DNA of 52,998 nucleotides from Deltaproteobacteria bacterium (GCA_016208225.1 JACQYM010000061.1:1-52998), one strand, 5' to 3'. Counted from the stretch's first letter, positions 1 through 32,358 are shown. Notes: a model not told the origin generated them from the sequence alone. Translations and numbers: made by a program.

Positions 1-1362
1 CTGTTAAAAATCATCCTGTTCGCCTATTCCCGGGGTATTACCTCCAGCCGCAAGATTGCTAAATGCTGCGAGGAAAACGTCATCTTCATGGCCCTATCCG
101 CCAACAGTCGGCCTCATTTCACCACTATCTCCGATTTTATCTCCGCCATGGACACGGAGGCCATTACCATCTTCCGGGAGGTCCTGCTGCTGTGTGATGA
201 GATGGGCCTGATCGGCAAGGAGATGTTTGCCATCGACGGCTGCAAACTGCCGTCCAACGCTGCCAAGGAGTGGAGCGGCACCAGGGCGGACTTTAAGAAG
301 AAGGCAGTCAAGATGGAGAAGGCCATAGCGTCGATGGTAAAAAACCACCATGTCAGCGACCGCAATCAGGGTGAGGAAGCACAGGCCAGCCGTGATGAGC
401 AGTAAGTGGCCACCCTGCGCAACCGGCTTACGAAAATAAGGAAATGGCTGAATGGCAATGATGACAAACCGGGTAAAACCGGCAAGCCGCGCAAGAGCAA
501 CATCACCGACAATGATTCCGCCAAGATGAAAACCTCCAAGGGAGTTATCCAGGGTTATGACGGGGTAACGGCGGTTGACGGCAAGCACCAGATCATCGTC
601 CATGCCGAGGCCTTTGGCCAGGGGCAGGAGCATGACCTGCTGAAACCGATGATTGACGGCACCCGCGAGAATTTCCAGGCCATCGGCAAGGAAGAGAACA
701 TCTTTGCCGAGACAAAGCTGAGTGCTGACAGTGGTTTTCACAGCGGCAAGAACATGGAAATGCTGCAAGAGCAGCGGATTGATGCCTATGTGGCAGACCC
801 CCATTTCCGGAAACGTGTTCCCCGTTTTGCCGACGCGGATCGCTACAAAGAGCGGACCCGAAAAGAAAGGGCAAGACGCTCCGGCCACTCCAGACTTTTT
901 GCCACCGAAGATTTTACCTTTGCGGATGACATGCGCTATTGCCTCTGCCCGGCAGGCAAGCGTCTGTACCGGAGCGGCGCCAATGCCGTAACCAAGGGGC
1001 TATGCTCAATCCGCTTCAAGGGGCCGAAATCAGCCTGCCTGTCCTGCACCCTCAGGACCCAATGCCTGCGGCATCCGGAAAGAACCGAGATCAGGCAAGT
1101 TGCTTATTTTCATGGTCGTACGGAAAAGGCCAAGGACTCCTGCATTGAAAAGATGAAACGCAAGATCGATTCGACAGTGGGCCGGGCCATGTATGCCATG
1201 CGGTTGGCCATCGCGGAGCCGCCCTTTGCCCACATATGCCGGGTAATGGGACTGGATCGGTTTACTCTTCGAGGACGAAACAAGGTCAACAGCCAATGGA
1301 ATCTGTTCTGTGTCGTCCATAACCTGAAAAAAATCCACCGCTATGGCGAAGGGTTCGCGTAG
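1..1362 (+). pseudogene. IS1182-family (IS5-like) DDE transposase, 5' partial at window edge, interrupted by in-frame TAA at 403-405
   Basis: Frame 1 is open from nt 1 (LLKIILFAYSRGITSSRKIAKCCEENVIFMALSAN...FTTISDF, the DUF772-type transposase N-terminus). ORFs 88-405 and 406-1362 are in the same frame, separated only by TAA. The C-terminal half has the Cys-rich block CPAGKRLY...C..C..QC and the tail RFTLRGRNKVNSQWNLFCVVHNLKKI typical of IS1182 transposases (family assignment from memory). Confidence 0.75.
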
Positions 1363-1418
1363 AAAGCGGAAATCAGAAAAAAGCAGTCATGAACAGGGCA
1401 AAAAGAACATGAAAGCGA
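1..1418 (+). mobile_element. Insertion sequence body (IS1182-like); left end outside window, right end unresolved (somewhere 1363-1418)
   Basis: Transposase reading frame fills 1-1362. No terminal inverted repeat can be defined because the left end is not in the window. Confidence 0.45.
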
Positions 1419-1552
1419 CGTAAACGAGTCACGAACTGAATAGCCGGGAATAGTAAACCGGATCGCGGATAGCTCTGGGGATTTTCAAAAATGAGACCTT
1501 CCCGGCGACGCCAGGTGTCGCAAAAATGGCTTTTTCTACAGACTCGTTGTGC
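1419..1552 (+). repeat. attC-like site 0 (integron cassette recombination site)
   Basis: Imperfect palindrome with AAC...GTT polarity. CGTAAAC-GAGTC (1419-1430) pairs with GACTC-GTTGTGC (1541-1552). Internal hairpin GGCGAC/GTCGC at 1505-1520. Length 134 bp. The motif after its R'' box (AACGAGTCA) is shared with site 1. Confidence 0.6.
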
Positions 1553-1561
1553 TGAAATAAT

Positions 1562-2359
1562 ATGAACGATAATAAATTGGCAAAGAATAAAATTATCAAT
1601 ATCATTGGCGCAGCATTTCTCACTTTTTTAATGCTCGGCCTTGGCCAGATATCATGTGGCAAAATTAAACGCGGAATAATTATCTATTTCGCAAGTTTTC
1701 TGCTCGCCGCCATCGCTGTATTCATTTGCACCAAACCGTTTCCTCCCTTTAACATCCTAATTCCTGCCATTATATTTATCGGCCTTTATGTTTTTGCCAT
1801 CGTTGATGCCATTCTCATTGCCCGAGATCCAGAAAATACTCTCAGGCTAAAACCAATAGTTGGATATCTTATTCAGGCATACAAAATTCCGTCAGGAGCA
1901 ATGATTCCAACACTTTTAATCGGTGACCAGATACTTGTTGATAAGCATATATACAAAAATAAGGAACTGTCCCGTGGGGACATTGTGATATTTCCTTATC
2001 CTGTTAAGCCTGAGCAGGATTTTATTAAAAGAGTTGTGGCATTGGGCGGAGATACTTTTGAAATAAAGGGAAAACAAACTTACCTAAACGGCAAGCTTTT
2101 GCAAGAACCTTATGCAATCCATAAAGACCCCAAAATTTTTCCCGCAGAAGAAAACCAAAGAGATTTTTATGGCCCAATAACGGTCCCCACTGATTCAGTG
2201 TTTGTTATGGGGGACAATCGAGACAATGCTTATGATAGTCGTTTTTGGGGGGTAGTCAAAAAAGACACAATTAAAGCCAAAATAATCAATATCTATTGGT
2301 CCTGGGACAAAGAGGCTGGTTCTGTCAGATGGTACAGGATCGGAAAGCAAATTTTGTGA
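1562..2359 (+). CDS. Signal peptidase I (S26)-like membrane protein with the conserved box B and box E Ser residues replaced by Ala; cassette-encoded
   Basis: 265 aa. S26 boxes present: KIPSGAMIPTLLIGD, GDIVIF, FIKRVVALGGD, VMGDNRDNAYDSRFWG. The N-terminal ~100 aa has about 3 hydrophobic helices. AT-rich codon usage, unlike the backbone. Confidence 0.85.
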   Translation: MNDNKLAKNKIINIIGAAFLTFLMLGLGQISCGKIKRGIIIYFASFLLAAIAVFICTKPFPPFNILIPAIIFIGLYVFAIVDAILIARDPENTLRLKPIVGYLIQAYKIPSGAMIPTLLIGDQILVDKHIYKNKELSRGDIVIFPYPVKPEQDFIKRVVALGGDTFEIKGKQTYLNGKLLQEPYAIHKDPKIFPAEENQRDFYGPITVPTDSVFVMGDNRDNAYDSRFWGVVKKDTIKAKIINIYWSWDKEAGSVRWYRIGKQIL

Positions 2360-2385
2360 ACTAACCAATTGAAAATACATTGAAA

Positions 2386-2475
2386 GCACAACGAGTCAAT
2401 TCAGGCGACGGGAAGGGACTCGGGGGCGCTGACGCGGCAAGGCTTTTGGCCCGCGCCTGATTTCTGCCGTTCGCT
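2386..2475 (+). repeat. attC-like site 1
   Basis: Starts with GCACAAC (2386-2392), the exact reverse complement of GTTGTGC (1546-1552) that opens this cassette. TCAGGCG(A)CGGG 2401-2412 pairs with CCCGCGCCTGA 2450-2460. Ends with GTTCGCT 2469-2475. Length 90 bp. A GC-rich island in AT-rich DNA. Confidence 0.7.
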
Positions 2476-2488
2476 TCCAAATAATAAA

Positions 2489-2517
2489 TTGACTGACGTA
2501 ACCCAAAGGGTTACAAT
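2489..2517 (+). promoter_or_regulatory. Sigma-70 type promoter of higBA with overlapping palindromic operator
   Basis: TTGACT (2489-2494), 17 nt spacer, TACAAT (2512-2517). The perfect palindrome GTAACCC-AAA-GGGTTAC (2498-2514) lies inside the spacer and -10 element. The higB ATG is at 2524, 7 nt after the -10, with no Shine-Dalgarno. Confidence 0.6.
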
Positions 2518-2523
2518 TAATAC

Positions 2524-2802
2524 ATGATCAAGTCATTTAAGCATAAAGGTCTGGAGCAGTTTTTTTACACCGGCACCAAGAAAGGCATAAAGCCGGAACA
2601 TGCTGGAAAGCTGGAAAGAATATTGGACCGATTAAATGCGGCAAATGATTTAAAAGATATGAATTATCCAGGATCAAACCTGCACGCGCTGAGTGGAGAC
2701 CGTAAAGGTCAGTATTCAGTAAAGGTTTCTGGTAATTGGCGTGTAATTTTCGAATTCGAAAATGGTGACGCCTATATTGTCGATTACGACGATTATCATT
2801 AA
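2524..2802 (+). CDS. higB: HigB toxin (RelE/ParE superfamily, plasmid maintenance system killer type)
   Basis: 92 aa. MIKSFKHKGLEQFF...GIKPEHAGKLERILDRLNAA...LHALSGDRKGQYSVKVSGNWRVIFEFENGDAYIVDYDDYH is the classic HigB pattern. Toxin-first order, followed by an HTH antitoxin. Confidence 0.9.
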   Translation: MIKSFKHKGLEQFFYTGTKKGIKPEHAGKLERILDRLNAANDLKDMNYPGSNLHALSGDRKGQYSVKVSGNWRVIFEFENGDAYIVDYDDYH

Positions 2803-2817
2803 AAAAGGAGGTGGCTC

Positions 2818-3132
2818 ATGGCTACTATGAAAAGACAACCCACCCATCCAGGCAATATACTGAAGGAAGATTATCTTATACCACTATCAATTACTATTCA
2901 GGATATGTCATCAATTCTTGGAGTTTCAAGGAAAACCCTATCAAAAATCATCAACTGTCGCGGCTCTGTTACGCCTGACATGGCTTTGCGGTTATCTCGT
3001 GCTTTTGATACAACGCCTGAACTTTGGCTGAATCTCCAGAAAAATTATGATCTTTGGCATGCAGCACATGATTCAGAATCTTGGAAAAACGTAAAACCAA
3101 TTTTCCATTCCACTATGCCAAATCATATATAA
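2818..3132 (+). CDS. higA: HigA antitoxin (XRE-type HTH)
   Basis: 104 aa. HPGNILKEDYL...GVSRKTLSKIINCRGSVTPDMALRLSRAFDTTPELWLNLQKNYDLW matches the HigA family pattern. Strong RBS AAGGAGG at 2804-2810. Confidence 0.9.
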   Translation: MATMKRQPTHPGNILKEDYLIPLSITIQDMSSILGVSRKTLSKIINCRGSVTPDMALRLSRAFDTTPELWLNLQKNYDLWHAAHDSESWKNVKPIFHSTMPNHI

Positions 3133-3136
3133 ATAA

Positions 3137-3264
3137 AGCGAACAAGCGCATGAAGAGGGACCGGCGAGCACCGGGCTCCATCGTGCAGTTGCAACATTGT
3201 CAATCCCGGCCAGGTGAGTGCAACTCCACCGCCGGCCCCTTTGCAAAGCGTTTAGCGGTTAAAA
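3137..3264 (+). repeat. attC-like site 2
   Basis: Starts with AGCGAAC (3137-3143), the exact reverse complement of GTTCGCT (2469-2475) that opens this cassette. AGGGACCGGCG 3156-3166 pairs with CGCCGGCCCCT 3230-3240. The 3' core is either GTTTAGC (3250-3256) or GTTAAAA (3258-3264). About 120-128 bp. Confidence 0.7.
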
Positions 3265-3279
3265 AAGCGGGGCACTCAA

Positions 3280-3750
3280 ATGTCTCTGTCAGTAAAATTA
3301 AACGATATCATTAACGAAATGGAAATCCAATCTAATGACCATTCATACTATCTCAACAAAAAAACAGGTGAGATTGTAATGGTCACTGATGAGCATTTTT
3401 CCTTAGCCGATGATAGTGAAGACATTTCTCATTATTCGGACTGGGAGCAAGAAGCTATTCGCGTAGCAATCAATGTGCTTGAATCAGAAGAAAATTTTAT
3501 TCCATTGCCTTCCAAATTTGACATACATGAGTATCAAATCATGGAAGATTTTTGCCTTTCCCTGGATGACGAGAATTTGAGGGGCAAAATGTATCGCTCA
3601 GTCAAAGGCTCAGGCGCTTTCCGAAGATTCAAGGACAGCATTTTTGAATATGGTATTGAAAAAAATTGGTTCCAACATCGCAGAGAAGCGTTCAAACGTA
3701 TAGCTGTTGATTGGTGTGAGGGAAACGACATTCCATACACAGAGGAATGA
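3280..3750 (+). CDS. UPF0158 family protein (function unknown), cassette-encoded
   Basis: 156 aa, acidic. The pattern ...IPLPSKFDIHEYQIMEDFC...LRGKMYRSVKGSGAFRRFKDSI...W...R resembles the UPF0158 family as I remember it. AT-rich. Confidence 0.7.
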   Translation: MSLSVKLNDIINEMEIQSNDHSYYLNKKTGEIVMVTDEHFSLADDSEDISHYSDWEQEAIRVAINVLESEENFIPLPSKFDIHEYQIMEDFCLSLDDENLRGKMYRSVKGSGAFRRFKDSIFEYGIEKNWFQHRREAFKRIAVDWCEGNDIPYTEE

Positions 3751-3842
3751 AACGCCTGGGGGCATAGGGACATCCTTAATATTTTAAGCGCCCGCAGGCA
3801 CATCCCGCCAGATCTCACACCAGCCAGTCCCCGGCGTCTCTG
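3747..3842 (+). repeat. attC-like site 3 (left arm convincing, right arm tentative)
   Basis: The left arm ATGAAAC-GCCTGGGGGCATAGGGAC is homologous to the left arm of site 2 (AAC-AAGCGCATGAAGAGGGAC). GAAACGCC 3749-3756 pairs 7/8 with GGCGTCTC 3833-3840, and GGGAC 3767-3771 pairs with GTCCC 3827-3831. The 3' core is GTC rather than GTT, and the right arm overlaps the last codons of the minus-strand DUF4143 remnant. Confidence 0.4.
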
Positions 3843-4348
3843 CTGAAAAAATCGGCCAGCGGAATGCCCGGTCCGCCTGCCAGCAGGGCGCGGGCCTCGG
3901 GGTAGCGGGCGCGGAAGCGGCTCAGGCCGGAGGTCTTGGCGCTTCTGCCGCTTTTTACCTCGATGGCCCAGATGTCGTTTCCCCTGGCGACTACGAAATC
4001 CACCTCATGGTCCCTTTCCCGCCAATAGGTGACGGTATATTCCACCGAATTGAGGCTGTTGCACAGATGGCCGCCCACCGCGTTTTCCACCAGCCGTCCC
4101 CACCAGATCGTGTCACCCAGGGCATCGGTAAAATTCCGGGTGGAAAGGGCGTTCACCAGGGCATTGTTCCACAGCACCAGCTTGGGGCTGCTGCCGCGCT
4201 TGCGTTGTCGGCCCCGTGAAAAGAGTTCCAGGCCGCTGGCCAGGAAGGCGGCCTCCAGCAGTTTCAGGTAGTGGGCGAGGGTGGGTGTTCCCGTGCAGCC
4301 GGCACCCTGCTCATAAGCTGCCGGCGTTGCCGGGTTATGGATTCCGGC
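3815..4348 (-). pseudogene. C-terminal remnant of a DUF4143-type AAA+ ATPase (N-terminal roughly two thirds missing)
   Basis: The frame is open from 4348 down to the stop at 3815. It reads ...TPTLAHYLKLLEAAFLASGLELFSRGRQRKRGSSPKLVLWNNALVNAL...WRERDHEVDFVVARGNDIWAIEVKSGR, which is the DUF4143 C-terminal region. No Walker A/B part and no plausible start upstream; TGA at 4349-4351. Confidence 0.7.
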
Positions 4349-4412
4349 TCAACACCCTACCGGAATGATATAATTTTCGATTTCAATAGAGACGGATCGG
4401 AAGCCGATTTAT

Positions 4413-4537
4413 ATGAAAGTCTCTTTCCTGTCTTGTTGTGCCGACCGGAACGTAGGAGCGGGCCATGCCCGCGACCTCAGGGGTTGCGGATATTCTAATC
4501 GCGGGCAAGGCCCGCTCCTACGCCGCGTGACTTTCAT
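4413..4537. repeat. Nested palindrome: inverted pair of REP-like units inside an outer 9-bp inverted repeat
   Basis: Inner arms are CGTAGGAGCGGGCCATGCCCGCGA (4451-4474) and TCGCGGGCAAGGCCCGCTCCTACG (4499-4522), with 23/24 complementarity. Each arm is itself a small hairpin (GCGGGC...GCCCGC). Outer arms are ATGAAAGTC (4413-4421) and GACTTTCAT (4529-4537). Confidence 0.7.
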
Positions 4538-4747
4538 GCTTCGTTGTTCCCGCTTGCGGAGATGGCGGTTAGCGTCAATCTCCCGCAGTAAAGTTTCGGA
4601 TACGATGTGCCCCATTGGCAATTGCCGCAGGGGCGATGTGAAACCATACAAAATTATTTCTCGCCGGTTATCTTTACTGGACCCCGGCGAAAAGCATGCC
4701 GGGGTGACGACTTGAGGAAGATTGACGCTCATCAGGAATCGGTAACT

Positions 4748-6488
4748 TTATTCCCTAACCTCGAAAACCAGCTTTTCCGCCGAGATGTTGTTGTGTACAT
4801 CGGTAGTCTGCACGCGCACCTGATGCGAACCCGGCGTCAGGTCGTCCGGCACGGCGCAGGTCCAGACATGGGTTGAGCCGGTGGTCTGCAGAAATGTCGG
4901 CAGGGGCTGGGGCGGCGCCGGTAACTGCGTGCCGTTCCACAGGGTGAAGCCGTCCGTGTAGCGGAAGACGTAGGCCTGGGTGCGCAGGGCGAACGGATCG
5001 GCTGTGTTTTGGTCCCGCAGTGCCGGTTCCGGCAGGCGGTCGTCATACTGGCAGGTGACCTGGGAGGCGGTGGAGCCGTTCCAGACATTGGCCACCAGGG
5101 CCAGGTTCGGGCTGGTCAGATCCTCCGGGGTCAGCACCCGCTGATCGCCCAGATCATGCAGGGTGACGGGAGGGGCTGCCGGCCGCGTGGCGGGATCGCT
5201 GTTCTGCCAGGTGCGCAGCGCCTCATACCAGGCGAGAAACGAATCGGTGCGCAGGGAAAGATTCATCTGCCTGTCCGCGGCCAGCCCTGAGGCCTTAAAG
5301 CTGTCCGTATACTGGTTGCCGTTGAACTCGATGATCATATGGCCTTTGGGGCCGCCGTCGCGCTGGTAGGAAAAGGGCACGCCGGCGTCGGTGAAATCGC
5401 CGCTCCACCAGGAACCGCAGGAAGCGCCGACAATGATCTGGCTAATGGGGGTCGGCTGGCCCCAGCCCTCTTCCTCATCGCCGGGCTGGAAATGTTCCAG
5501 GGTGTGGGTGTGGCCCCCCCAGGGACAGCACCCGGCGGCCGGCCAGCAGCTCGTAGATCTCCTCGCGGTTGTTCACCTGGTGGTTGGCGGCCAGCCGGTC
5601 GATATAGGAAACCAGGGGGATATGCATGTTGAGCACGATCAGCCGGTCCTTCGGCACCTGGCGCAGGTCGTTGATCAGCCACTGCATTTGGGCGTCGTCA
5701 ATCTCGCCGTGGTAGCTTGATGAAAGCGTGGAGGGGTAGACGATGGAGTCCAGCACCACGAAGTGGACCCGGCCGTAATTGAACGAATAGTAGGCCGGCC
5801 CGTACTGGCTCTTGAAGGTGTCGAGGGAATGGGCGTCGTCCGGGGCGTCCAGGTTCATGTCATGGTTGCCGGCCGTCAGGTAGTAGGGGATGCCCAGCTC
5901 CTTCATGACCGAGATAAAGCGGGGGTAGAGCGAGAGTTTGTCGCCGATGTTGTCGCCCAGGGTGACGGCCACCACGGCGTCGCTCTCCGCCACTTCCTTG
6001 ACCGTGGTGTCGCGGAAATAGGCAAGCTCGGTGTCGTTGTATACTTGGGTATCGCCCAAAAAGACGGCCTTGAAGGAATCGGATTCACGCACTTTGTGCA
6101 GGGGGAAATCGATGCTGGCCGGCAGCGGGCCGGTGGGCGCAAGCCCTGGATACTGCTGGATCTCCGGCGGCGAGCCTGCCGGCTGGTGGATGTAAAAGAA
6201 ACGGGGGATATTGTTTTCGCCGAGCGGCGGGGCATAGCCCGCCGGCTTGCTGACAAATACCGCCATCTCGTCATAGGCGGGCAGGGTATAGCGGCCCTGG
6301 CCGTTGGTCTGCACCACTTCATGACTGTTGGATACGCTGACTCCGGCGATACCGGGCTCTCCTTTTTCCCGTAAGCCGTTGCCGTTTTTGTCCCAGAAAA
6401 CCGTACCGCTGATGTCCTGGGCCGCCGCGGCGAGCGAAACATTGCCCAGCAGCAGGGCGGCGCAGGTGATAATGGTTGCCTTGTTCAT
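4748..6488 (-). pseudogene. Secreted calcineurin-like metallophosphoesterase, reading frame broken at a G7 run (C7 on + strand, 5514-5520)
   Basis: Signal peptide MNKATIITCAALLLGNVSLAAAAQ. Motifs GDTQ, GDNIGD and GNHD are in ORF 5475-6605. After SLGG the frame is lost. Removing one G restores GGHTHTLEHFQPGDEEEGW...VPFSYQRDGGPKGHMIIEF, which runs straight into ORF 4748-5380. ATG at 6488 with AGGAGAG upstream. Confidence 0.8.
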
Positions 6489-7091
6489 TTTCTCTCTCCT
6501 TGTCTGTTGGTGATGGTGGTTTGCACCCGGTGCACGATGCGGACAGAGGGCCCTTCCGCCGGTATCATCTGCAGGGCGCGCCACCGTTTTTCCTGTCTCA
6601 CGCATGTTGCGGCTCCATCCCGGGAAAATGATGCCGAGTGCGCGGGAAAGTTAGTAAAAATTTAAAGGTCGTATGTTAGGATTTGATAAATGAAGGGATA
6701 AAAAAAGGATAGCAGGCGGTTATCATTTCATGAGCGGTTGGTTAGCCGCGGCATATCATCCCCGGAAAACCGCGGGTCCCATTTGACGGCCGGCCAGGGC
6801 ACCAGATAAAAGAAAAAGAGCAAACAAGGGTGAAAATGTTGATTTCTTACCAAAAAATGCCAAATTTTTCTGGTGTATAGCCCCCCTGTCCTTTACAATT
6901 ATTTCCGGGGCGTCTTGAAAAGTTGGTGGAAGTTGGCATATCCGATGAGCCGTTGTAAAAAAATACTGCAACATCCCATGCGATGCCCGACATAGGGGCG
7001 GTTACGAAATGATGCAAACTGTGATGGTTATTTTGTAACGGCCTCAACAAATCGCCTTACTGATAAGTTGGAAAAAAGAAATTTTCATTTC

Positions 7092-31371: not shown

Positions 31372-32358
31372 TCATTCCTTTCTGGTGCTGCGGGGGTGGA
31401 ATTTGCGGTGTACGGCCTGCAGGCGGCCGGTGTCCACATGGGTGTAGATCTGGGTGGTGGCGATGTCGGCGTGGCCCAGCATGAGCTGCACGGATCTGAG
31501 GTCGGCGCCCTGGGCCAGCAGGTGGGTGGCAAAGGAGTGGCGCAGCATGTGGGGGCTGATTTTTTTGGCAATGCCGGCGGCGTAGGCCGTTTCCTGGATA
31601 ATCTGCCAGAAGCGGAGCCTGGTCATGGCTGTGCCCCGGCTGGTGACAAACATGGCCCTGCTTTTTTTCGCCTTGAGCAGCCGGCCCCTGCTGTGCTGCA
31701 GATAGAGGAGCAGTTTGTCCTTGGCTTCCTCGCCAAAGGGGACAAGCCGTTCCTTGGTTCCCTTGCCGAGCACCCGGACAAAGCCGGCGTTCAGGTTGAG
31801 GGCCGCCAGCGGCAGGGTGACCAGTTCGGAGACGCGCATGCCGGTCGCGTACAGCAGATGCAGCATGGCGGTGTTGCGCAGGGTGAGATCCGTTTTTTCT
31901 CCCGGGCCGGCCAGGAGCATGTCCACCTCGGCGACCGAGAGGTCAGTGGGCAGGGAGCGGCCGCTTTTAGGGATGTCGAGGATGCAGGTCGGGTCCTGGC
32001 CGATGATTTTTTCGGCCAGCAGGAAACGGAAAAAGCTTCTGAGGCAGGAAAGACGCCGGGCGTTGCTGCGGTTGGCGATGCCGTTTTTTTTACAGGCGGC
32101 AAAAAAGTCGCGGATATGGTCCGGGCCCGTATGTGGCAGGGAGATCTTTATTCTGGCCAGAAAGGAAAGAAAGGCGCCGAGATCCGCCTGGTAGGAGCGA
32201 ATCGTGTTGTCTGAAAGTCTTTTTTCCGCGGCGAGATAATGGAGAAACAGATCCTGGCAATGAAGCATTTCCGCTGGAAGACTCATGCCAGGAACCCTGT
32301 TCCGGTATCGGTGCGCAGTGCTTGAATGAGGCTGAATGTTTCCCCGTTTGTTTGTCAT
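31372..32358 (-). CDS. xerD: Tyrosine site-specific recombinase XerD (XerC not excluded); start may be ATG 32286
   Basis: [23 protein letters not shown]...; catalytic region [39 protein letters not shown]. Confidence 0.8.

Follow-up and report, generated by a model that had tools for sequence, protein, structure and literature searches.

Clusters of attC sites with no integrase nearby (CALINs) are defined in IntegronFinder as at least two attC sites within 4 kb. Such clusters, like the sedentary arrays of chromosomal integrons, lie in a chromosomal context and hold promoterless, AT-rich single-gene cassettes as well as toxin-antitoxin cassettes that bring their own promoter. Insertion sequences (ISs) are known that recognize the same sites or similar structures. 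Those of the IS1111-attC group are specific to attC, lie in one orientation relative to the cassettes, and possess DEDD (IS110/IS1111) transposases with RNA-guided targeting (PMC11187229). IS1272 and other members of the IS1182 family target hairpins, IS1272 doing so with no primary-sequence specificity, with no target duplication and with deletion of part of the hairpin (PMC4923244, PMC5678879). The locus described here is located near the start of a sequence from a Deltaproteobacteria bacterium (GCA_016208225.1, JACQYM010000061.1:1-52998); the window that was analysed is the entire contig of 52,998 bp, and its start falls inside an IS. With a probability of about 90%, we read positions 1546-3774 as an array of three gene cassettes of a chromosomal integron, which in this contig takes the form of a CALIN. 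The cassettes are ordinary chromosomal integron cassettes, that is, of an already known kind. The window has all the features of CALINs and sedentary arrays listed above and differs from them in that only three cassettes are visible, that one end is formed by an IS and the contig edge, and that the other end is a deletion into a backbone gene.

An integron-type array directly downstream of an IS had been proposed in a first-pass annotation made from the sequence alone, and this proposal is borne out by attC geometry, model matches and breakpoints at G/TT (the slash marks the point of joining). Every sequence string quoted in that annotation is present where it had been placed. Four attC-like sites had been marked, which we number 0 (1419-1552), 1 (2386-2475), 2 (3137-3264) and 3 (3747-3842). 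Sites 1 and 2 are genuine, the latter with a corrected end because its R' box GTTTAGC lies at 3250-3256, whereas site 0 is the end of the IS and site 3 is incomplete (see below). Both genuine sites have the layout R''-spacer-L''...L'-spacer-R' with AAC and GTT cores and unpaired bases on the L'' side. Laid beside attC(aadA2), site 1 has the same succession of a 7-nt R'', a 5-nt spacer, 3 bp, an extra base, 6 bp, an extra A, a stem, a 6-nt spacer and R', the extra bases being positions 16 and 23. Among the repeated strings, AACGAGTC is present at both 1423 and 2390, and AAGCGC...AGGGAC of site 2 recurs as AAACGCC...AGGGAC in site 3. The proposed rule that the 7-mer opening a cassette is the reverse complement of its own R'' holds in 7/7 positions for cassettes 1 (GTTGTGC at 1546, GCACAAC at 2386) and 2 (GTTCGCT at 2469, AGCGAAC at 3137), the chance odds per exact match with AAC/GTT fixed being 1/256; it fails for cassette 3 (GTTTAGC and ATGAAAC, 4/7). 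A complete attC is present in two cassettes, those of the S26 peptidase and of higBA, and the UPF0158 cassette has lost its own. The AT-rich cassettes also stand out from the GC-rich backbone, as had been claimed: GC content is 38-39% in cassette bodies, 61-64% in the attCs (intergenic sites), 54% in the IS and about 57% in the backbone.

The search with an attC covariance model that the first-pass annotation had called for was run with two surrogates, and their matches fall exactly on sites 1 and 2. Model R1 was built from eight class 1 integron attCs of plasmid arrays with the variable centres trimmed (those of aac(6')-29a, blaVIM-2, aacA4, aadB, aadA2, dfrA12, gcuF and arr-3), and model R2 from 50 R1 matches in unrelated genomes, the window and its relatives being left out. 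Site 1 is the best R1 match in the whole window on both strands, with 23.9 bits over its full length 2386-2475 under default filters (13.3 bits as a local match with filters off); R2 gives it 40.5 bits (E 1.6e-7). Site 2 reaches 15.7 bits with R2 at 3138-3256 (E 0.01, filters off, in the 3.1 kb of region 1300-4400), where everything besides sites 1 and 2 scores at most 7 bits, and its orthologue in relatives 97-99% identical to the window (L112-L115) obtains 30.9 bits with the same model. The two sites are 663 bp apart on one strand, so that, by surrogate models only, at least two model-recognized attCs lie within 4 kb. The likeness of site 2 to the Vibrio cholerae repeat (VCR), likewise suggested in the first-pass annotation, was confirmed against the VCR oligonucleotide (PMC2095811, Table 3), whose left arm is AAC-AAACG-CCTCAAGAGGGAC: the top strands read AAC-AAACG-CCT[C]AAG[A]GGG[A]CTG in VCR and AAC-AAGCG-CA[TG]AAG[A]GGG[A]CCG in site 2. 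Common to both are a left arm AAC-AA(A/G)CG-C(C/A)T(C/G)AAGAGGGAC, a right arm of GCCCCTTA type and three positions of unpaired bases; site 2 differs in its phylum, its unrelated centre, the first unpaired bottom-strand base (C, not G) and an altered L'.

We regard comparison with related genomes, which had been proposed as a check, as the decisive evidence for the array: cassettes are present, absent or replaced, with breaks at G/TT. An ENA sequence, L113, is 97.9% identical to window positions 2469-6339, and 2469 is the G of GTTCGCT. Upstream of higBA, L113 carries instead a DUF5677 cassette whose own attC (27.5 bits) ends in GTTCGCT, and two sequences from the same population as the window (L123 and L124) have there a third attC (24.1 bits) with the same ending. 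Hence, higBA follows three different attCs, all joined at G/TTCGCT. Likewise, the S26 cassette region (1545-2395) is 91-94% identical to L001, a metagenome-assembled genome (MAG) labelled Proteobacteria, within limits set by GTTGTGC and GCACAAC; in L001 and in the Desulfobulbaceae MAG L021 the cassette stands behind two different model-supported attCs, both ending in GTTGTGC. The cassette boundaries proposed at G/TT are supported by neighbour exchange at both GTTCGCT and GTTGTGC. The same cassettes behind different neighbours, always joined at G/TT, bear the signature of integrase-mediated exchange.

In their attC interiors, the S26 cassettes of L001 and of the window are unrelated. The L021 cassette has a left arm related to that of the window (CAGTCAATTAACGC). 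In both L001 and L021, an element of 70-90 nt starting GGGGTCAAGTCTGCCGTTGAC replaces the remainder of the S26 attC, which largely accounts for the difference between the window and L001. An element of this length starting GGGGTCAAGTCTGCCGTTGACTTT takes the place of the interior or right arm of attCs in L001 (10844-10920) and L021 (1608-1680, 3334-3380); possibly this is a further small mobile element associated with attC. Homologues of the S26 gene in L002-L004 and L023-L027 occur in non-cassette contexts. A metagenome scan with the S26 protein retrieved only relatives of 30-58% identity and was uninformative.

Several observations weigh against an integron array. There is no sign in our data of cassette mobility in this strain, and tblastn with IntI1 (a query 100% identical to plasmid copies) detected no integron integrase in the 53-kb contig. 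The first extra base of the bottom strand is A in site 1 and C in site 2, G being usual. The attC models are narrow surrogates built here, not the curated model of IntegronFinder. Site 2 is weak in the window and was missed by R2 in the whole-window search with default filters; its L' arm reads CCCCTTTGCAAAGC, a small change from CCCCTTATGCGAAGC in the relatives. Finally, single-strand folding yields imperfect hairpins at all four sites with energies no better than those of shuffled sequences (z -0.5 to -1.6), so that folding energy decides nothing here. Unremarkable hairpins and a contig without integrase would equally suit an AT-rich genomic islet unconnected with any integron, whose intergenic hairpins are terminators or repetitive extragenic palindrome (REP)-like repeats. 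However, the stems have no T run 3' of them, an islet does not account for attC-specific geometry and covariance-model matches, and it is already contradicted by cassette replacement in relatives with breaks exactly at G/TT; we consider it exceedingly improbable. If, as we prefer, the locus is a cassette array, then by analogy with characterized integrons the bottom strands of the attCs at sites 1 and 2 would fold into imperfect hairpins with extra unpaired bases that set strand choice, and the integron integrase (IntI) would cut the folded attC at G/TT and thereby excise or insert cassettes.

The left edge of the array is formed by the IS. Its transposase matches DDE_Tnp_1_6 (E 3e-20) and, over model positions 243-487, the NCBIfam model transpos_IS1182 (E 1.5e-45); the latter match does not reach the cut-off for the whole protein, since the contig start removes part of the gene and a stop codon splits it. 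A DDE transposase together with terminal inverted repeats, the left one known from full-length relatives, places the element in the IS1182 family. The interrupting TAA at 403-405 is TAC or TAT (Tyr) in nine relatives; this copy is probably inactive, or else the stop codon results from a consensus error. The element lies directly on the GTT of cassette 1 and points the same way as the cassettes. Site 0 had been taken for an attC and proved to be the 3' end of the IS with its terminal inverted repeat. The 183 nt between stop codon and terminal repeat compare with 150-200 nt in full-length relatives, and this spacing, together with the shared repeat, identifies 1363-1545 as the 3' end of the element itself. 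At 1423-1445 the tip of the IS recurs internally in imperfect form, AACGAGTCACGAACTGAATAGCC, with an 8-bp complement to the terminal repeat plus GTT, and L043 has a similar motif; this complementarity explains the palindromic look of site 0. That site 0 is nevertheless the genuine attC of a cassette interrupted by the IS could be argued from the 8 bp by which AACGAGTC (1423) and GACTCGTT (1541) are complementary and from AACGAGTCA, common to site 0 and the left arm of site 1. This is very improbable, given that its right arm is an IS terminal repeat found exactly in 76 genomes, that 1363-1545 has the length of the 3' end of full-length copies, that its L boxes are unpaired, and that no attC model match appeared even at E 10 in the 3.1-kb search.

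The right part of site 0, GGCTTTTTCTACAGACTCGTT, is also present in L021, which prompted a scan of the GTDB genome collection. The terminal repeat followed by GTT was found exactly in 76 stretches from many phyla, including Thermodesulfobacteriota, Nitrospirota, several orders of Pseudomonadota, Omnitrophota and Nitrospinota (IS clade loci L036-L111 and L125). Upstream of the repeat there are a few IS subfamilies, and downstream the sequences diverge right after GTT, with 3' flanks of the form GTT-A-[G/T]-[G/A]-[C/T] (A in 55/77) that correspond to the cassette-boundary consensus. Full-length copies measure 1.77-1.86 kb and encode transposases 46-68% identical to that of the window; many others are miniatures of 99-292 bp. 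At the left ends the sequence is GAGTCTGTAGAAAAAGCC, with GTT in front of it in 36 cases and ATT in two. R1, which represents class 1 attCs only, has matches ending exactly at GTT plus the first element bases at 16 left ends; with R2, the attC match ends exactly at the junction in 20 of 38. Almost all R1 matches in these loci (61/62) are on the same strand as the element, fifteen loci have arrays of at least two attCs, and in four (L110, L053, L106 and L064) there is an IntI homologue with 49-55% identity to IntI1. On a Pseudoalteromonas chromid, an element with a 42%-identical transposase ends in TTCTACAGGCTC directly followed by GTTAGAG, then by an open reading frame and an attC.

The IS of the window is one of a clade, miniatures included, that occupies the GTT of attC sites in one orientation in many phyla. 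Based on these data we propose, with odds that we put at about even, that a cross-phylum clade of IS1182-type elements and their miniatures inserts at the GTT crossover triplet of attC in a single orientation, and that this clade is previously undescribed. It could just as well be right as wrong that the attC is left intact upon insertion: GTT plus the IS tip GAGT still reads GTTRRRY, and the downstream cassette also gains a GTT. The IS would then become the 5' part of the next cassette, and the integrase could move it from one integron to another; this would account for the conservation of a 20-nt repeat from Desulfobulbaceae to Nitrospirota and Omnitrophota and for its diverged form in Pseudoalteromonas. 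In the literature we found neither an IS1182-type group that targets attC nor its terminal repeat; ISfinder was not covered, and a prior description is possible. To our knowledge, and going by the works cited in PMC3971601 and PMC11187229, attC-specific ISs are known only in the IS1111 family.

The clade shares with the IS1111-attC group its preference for attC and its single orientation relative to the cassettes, but differs in having terminal inverted repeats, GTT at both flanks and many miniatures; moreover, the transposase of the window is of the DDE IS1182 type and not a DEDD enzyme. With IS1272 it has in common the IS1182 family and a preference for stem-loop-forming DNA; unlike IS1272, it uses a fixed GTT at the base of the attC stem, leaves the attC whole and has GTT on both sides. 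Group IIC-attC introns lie opposite to cassette transcription. They are likewise a mobile lineage specialized on attC (PMC3001079), yet as retroelements they follow another insertion chemistry and have no DDE transposase.

Because the IS family appears to insert at an attC-ending GTT, another attC would be expected immediately to the left of the window IS, beyond the contig start, and the left junction is predicted to read ...L'-spacer-GTT followed directly by GAGTCTGTAG, inside that attC. This expectation favours the view that a complete integron is present, with the array as its distal part and with intI, attI and Pc, and perhaps more cassettes, just to the left of the IS. In four other loci the element is within a few kb of an IntI homologue, and the recent replacement of cassettes upstream of higBA presupposes an integrase that is active somewhere. 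On the other hand, the contig begins inside the IS, L001 has a similar small array but, over 10 kb around it, no integrase, and a longer contig of this strain did not turn up: exact-protein look-ups gave no match with the S26, UPF0158 and CydB proteins of the window and only short contigs with HigA and HDOD, none of which reaches left of the IS, and a 116.5-kb ENA contig (P0242) with a SerS 100% identical to that of the window could not be linked from the array side. CALINs are reportedly common in IntegronFinder surveys, which also speaks against a complete integron. Within the contig there is no adjacent IntI-type recombinase; the sole tyrosine recombinase (31372-32358, minus strand) is XerD by NCBIfam (360.7 bits) and reaches 127.9 bits on the integron-integrase model, whose cut-off is 265. 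Taken together, we rate a complete integron slightly below an even chance.

At the right edge, site 3 had been presented as a further attC; it has no model match, and its right arm encodes conserved C-terminal residues of a DUF4143 protein. Residues 1-119 of the DUF4143 fragment align to the last ~120 residues of homologues of 320-430 amino acids, which shows that the right arm of site 3 (3823-3842) belongs to the native coding sequence. Cassette 3 is joined at this edge to a backbone gene that has lost its 5' part and retains its 3' end. L116 and L119 have an 85%-identical UPF0158 gene behind an attC that ends in GTTAGCG, where the window has GTTTAGCG, and in both a second gene stands between the UPF0158 gene and the next attC. 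Cassette 3 of the window is therefore truncated, and 3747-3790 is possibly, at most, the remnant left arm of the lost attC. A divergent but working attC that closes the array could still be seen in site 3 on account of its VCR-like left arm and a 12-bp outer stem with one bulge (GAAACGCC(T)GGGG and CCCCGGCGTCTC). It would, however, have GTC in place of the required GTT in R', it scores with neither R1 nor R2, it folds no better than shuffled sequence (z -0.46), its right arm encodes a conserved protein end, and homologous UPF0158 cassettes hold a second gene before their attC; we judge a working site very unlikely. L123 and L124 lack window positions 3234-3774 (541 bp), comprising the right arm of the site 2 attC, the UPF0158 gene and the left part of site 3. 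Excision by the integrase was considered for this loss and rejected, as neither endpoint (3233/3234, 3774/3775) coincides with an R box; judged from its ends, it is an ordinary illegitimate deletion. The junction shows 1-2 nt of microhomology.

Table 1. Features at the left end of the window (positions counted from the first nucleotide of the contig).
Feature	Position	Strand	Basis or remark
IS1182-family element, right-hand part	1-1545	+	Pfam DDE_Tnp_1_6, NCBIfam IS1182; contig starts inside
IS transposase frame	88-1362	+	Interrupted by TAA at 403-405
IS 3' non-coding end, holding site 0	1363-1545	+	183 nt from stop codon to end
IS right terminal inverted repeat, GGCTTTTTCTACAGACTC	1528-1545	+	Exact with GTT in 76 GTDB genomes
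GTT flanking the IS, identical with the GTT core that opens cassette 1 (GTTGTGC)	1546-1548	+	Same GTTGTGC junction in L001 and L021
Cassette 1: S26 signal-peptidase-I-like gene and attC	1547-2469	+	Pfam S26, TIGR02227
S26 signal-peptidase-like gene	1562-2359	+	Pfam S26, TIGR02227
attC of cassette 1 (site 1)	2386-2475	+	Geometry as attC(aadA2); R1 and R2 matches
Layout of site 1			R'' GCACAAC, 5-nt spacer GAGTC, L'' AAT[T]CAGGCG[A]CGGG ... L' CCCGCGCCTGATT, 6-nt spacer TCTGCC, R' GTTCGCT
Cassette 2: higB, higA and attC	2470-3250	+	Pfam HigB-like toxin, HTH_3; own promoter
higB	2524-2802	+	Pfam HigB-like toxin
higA	2818-3132	+	Pfam HTH_3
attC of cassette 2 (site 2), VCR-like	3137-3256	+	R2 match; VCR-type left arm
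Layout of site 2			R'' AGCGAAC, spacer AAGCG, L'' CA[TG]AAG[A]GGG[A]CCGGCG ... L' CGCCGGCCCCTTTG, spacer CAAAGC, R' GTTTAGC
Cassette 3, truncated: UPF0158 gene, no usable attC	3251-3774	+	Pfam UPF0158
UPF0158 gene	3280-3750	+	Pfam UPF0158
Candidate left-arm remnant of cassette 3 attC, ATGAAAC GCCTG GGGGCATAGGGAC	3747-3790	+	VCR-type likeness; no model match
DUF4143 ATPase gene, 3' fragment (last 120 codons), backbone	3815-4177	-	Pfam DUF4143

The three cassettes (Table 1) differ in how they are likely to be expressed. The only good plus-strand promoter match directly upstream of any cassette gene is TTGACT-17-TACAAT (2489-2517) before higB, and neither the S26 gene nor the UPF0158 gene shows an obvious one; in this respect the promoter scan agrees with the first-pass annotation, which had seen an obvious promoter in the toxin-antitoxin cassette only. 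The IS would separate the array from any upstream Pc promoter. Owing to its own promoter, higBA is likely to be the only cassette that is reliably expressed. A perfect inverted repeat, GTAACCC-AAA-GGGTTAC (2498-2514), spans the -10 box and is likely a HigA operator. The ATG of higB is located only 6 nt past the -10 box, which suggests a leaderless transcript.

When judged against L001, L021 and homologues of 290 amino acids, the S26 gene has suffered an in-frame deletion of 75 bp (25 codons, VLIAIWQANSQIVNPIVAKTVKQNF) near 1869, directly 5' of the catalytic SGAM motif. Given this loss just before the catalytic serine motif, the gene may be inactive. S26 homologues also occur just 3' of a GmrSD_N (DUF262) gene and a gene for an unknown protein of 200-240 amino acids (L001, 7266-10804; L002, 7382-10873). 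In L001 these three genes are separate cassettes, and in L002 the S26 gene is GC-rich and native-looking.

The backbone of the contig is chromosomal: besides three tRNAs it holds radA, serS, xerD, cydAB and the gene for a CCA-adding enzyme. Its SerS shares 88% identity with proteins named "MAG: Desulfobulbaceae bacterium", by which the host is to be placed as an uncultured, Desulfobulbaceae-like (sulfate-reducer-like) member of Thermodesulfobacteriota. Close relatives come from groundwater metagenomes. Two further features were seen next to the array. A REP-like palindrome, GTAGGAGCGGGCC...GGCCCGCTCCTAC, lies at 4452-4521 between the DUF4143 fragment and a metallophosphoesterase gene. The latter (4748-6605, minus strand) is split in two frames (4748-5380 and 5475-6605), and its counterpart in the 97%-identical relative L112 is one intact gene of 579 codons; the split appears to be due to either a frameshift or an assembly error.

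The same-population metagenomes show cassette replacement at single-base resolution, which implies that an integrase has been active recently. For annotation, the lesson is that the termini of elements of this IS family look like attC arms (AAC-GAGTC ... GACTC-GTT) and may be taken for attC, and that these elements break assemblies inside arrays. An attC-specific IS would probably silence the cassettes that it cuts off from Pc, and it might travel along with cassettes. If the clade is indeed undescribed, it would be the third kind of mobile element specialized on attC, after the IS1111-attC group and the group IIC-attC introns, and, if our proposal is true, it would provide a tractable example of a DDE transposase whose target is both structured and sequence-specific.

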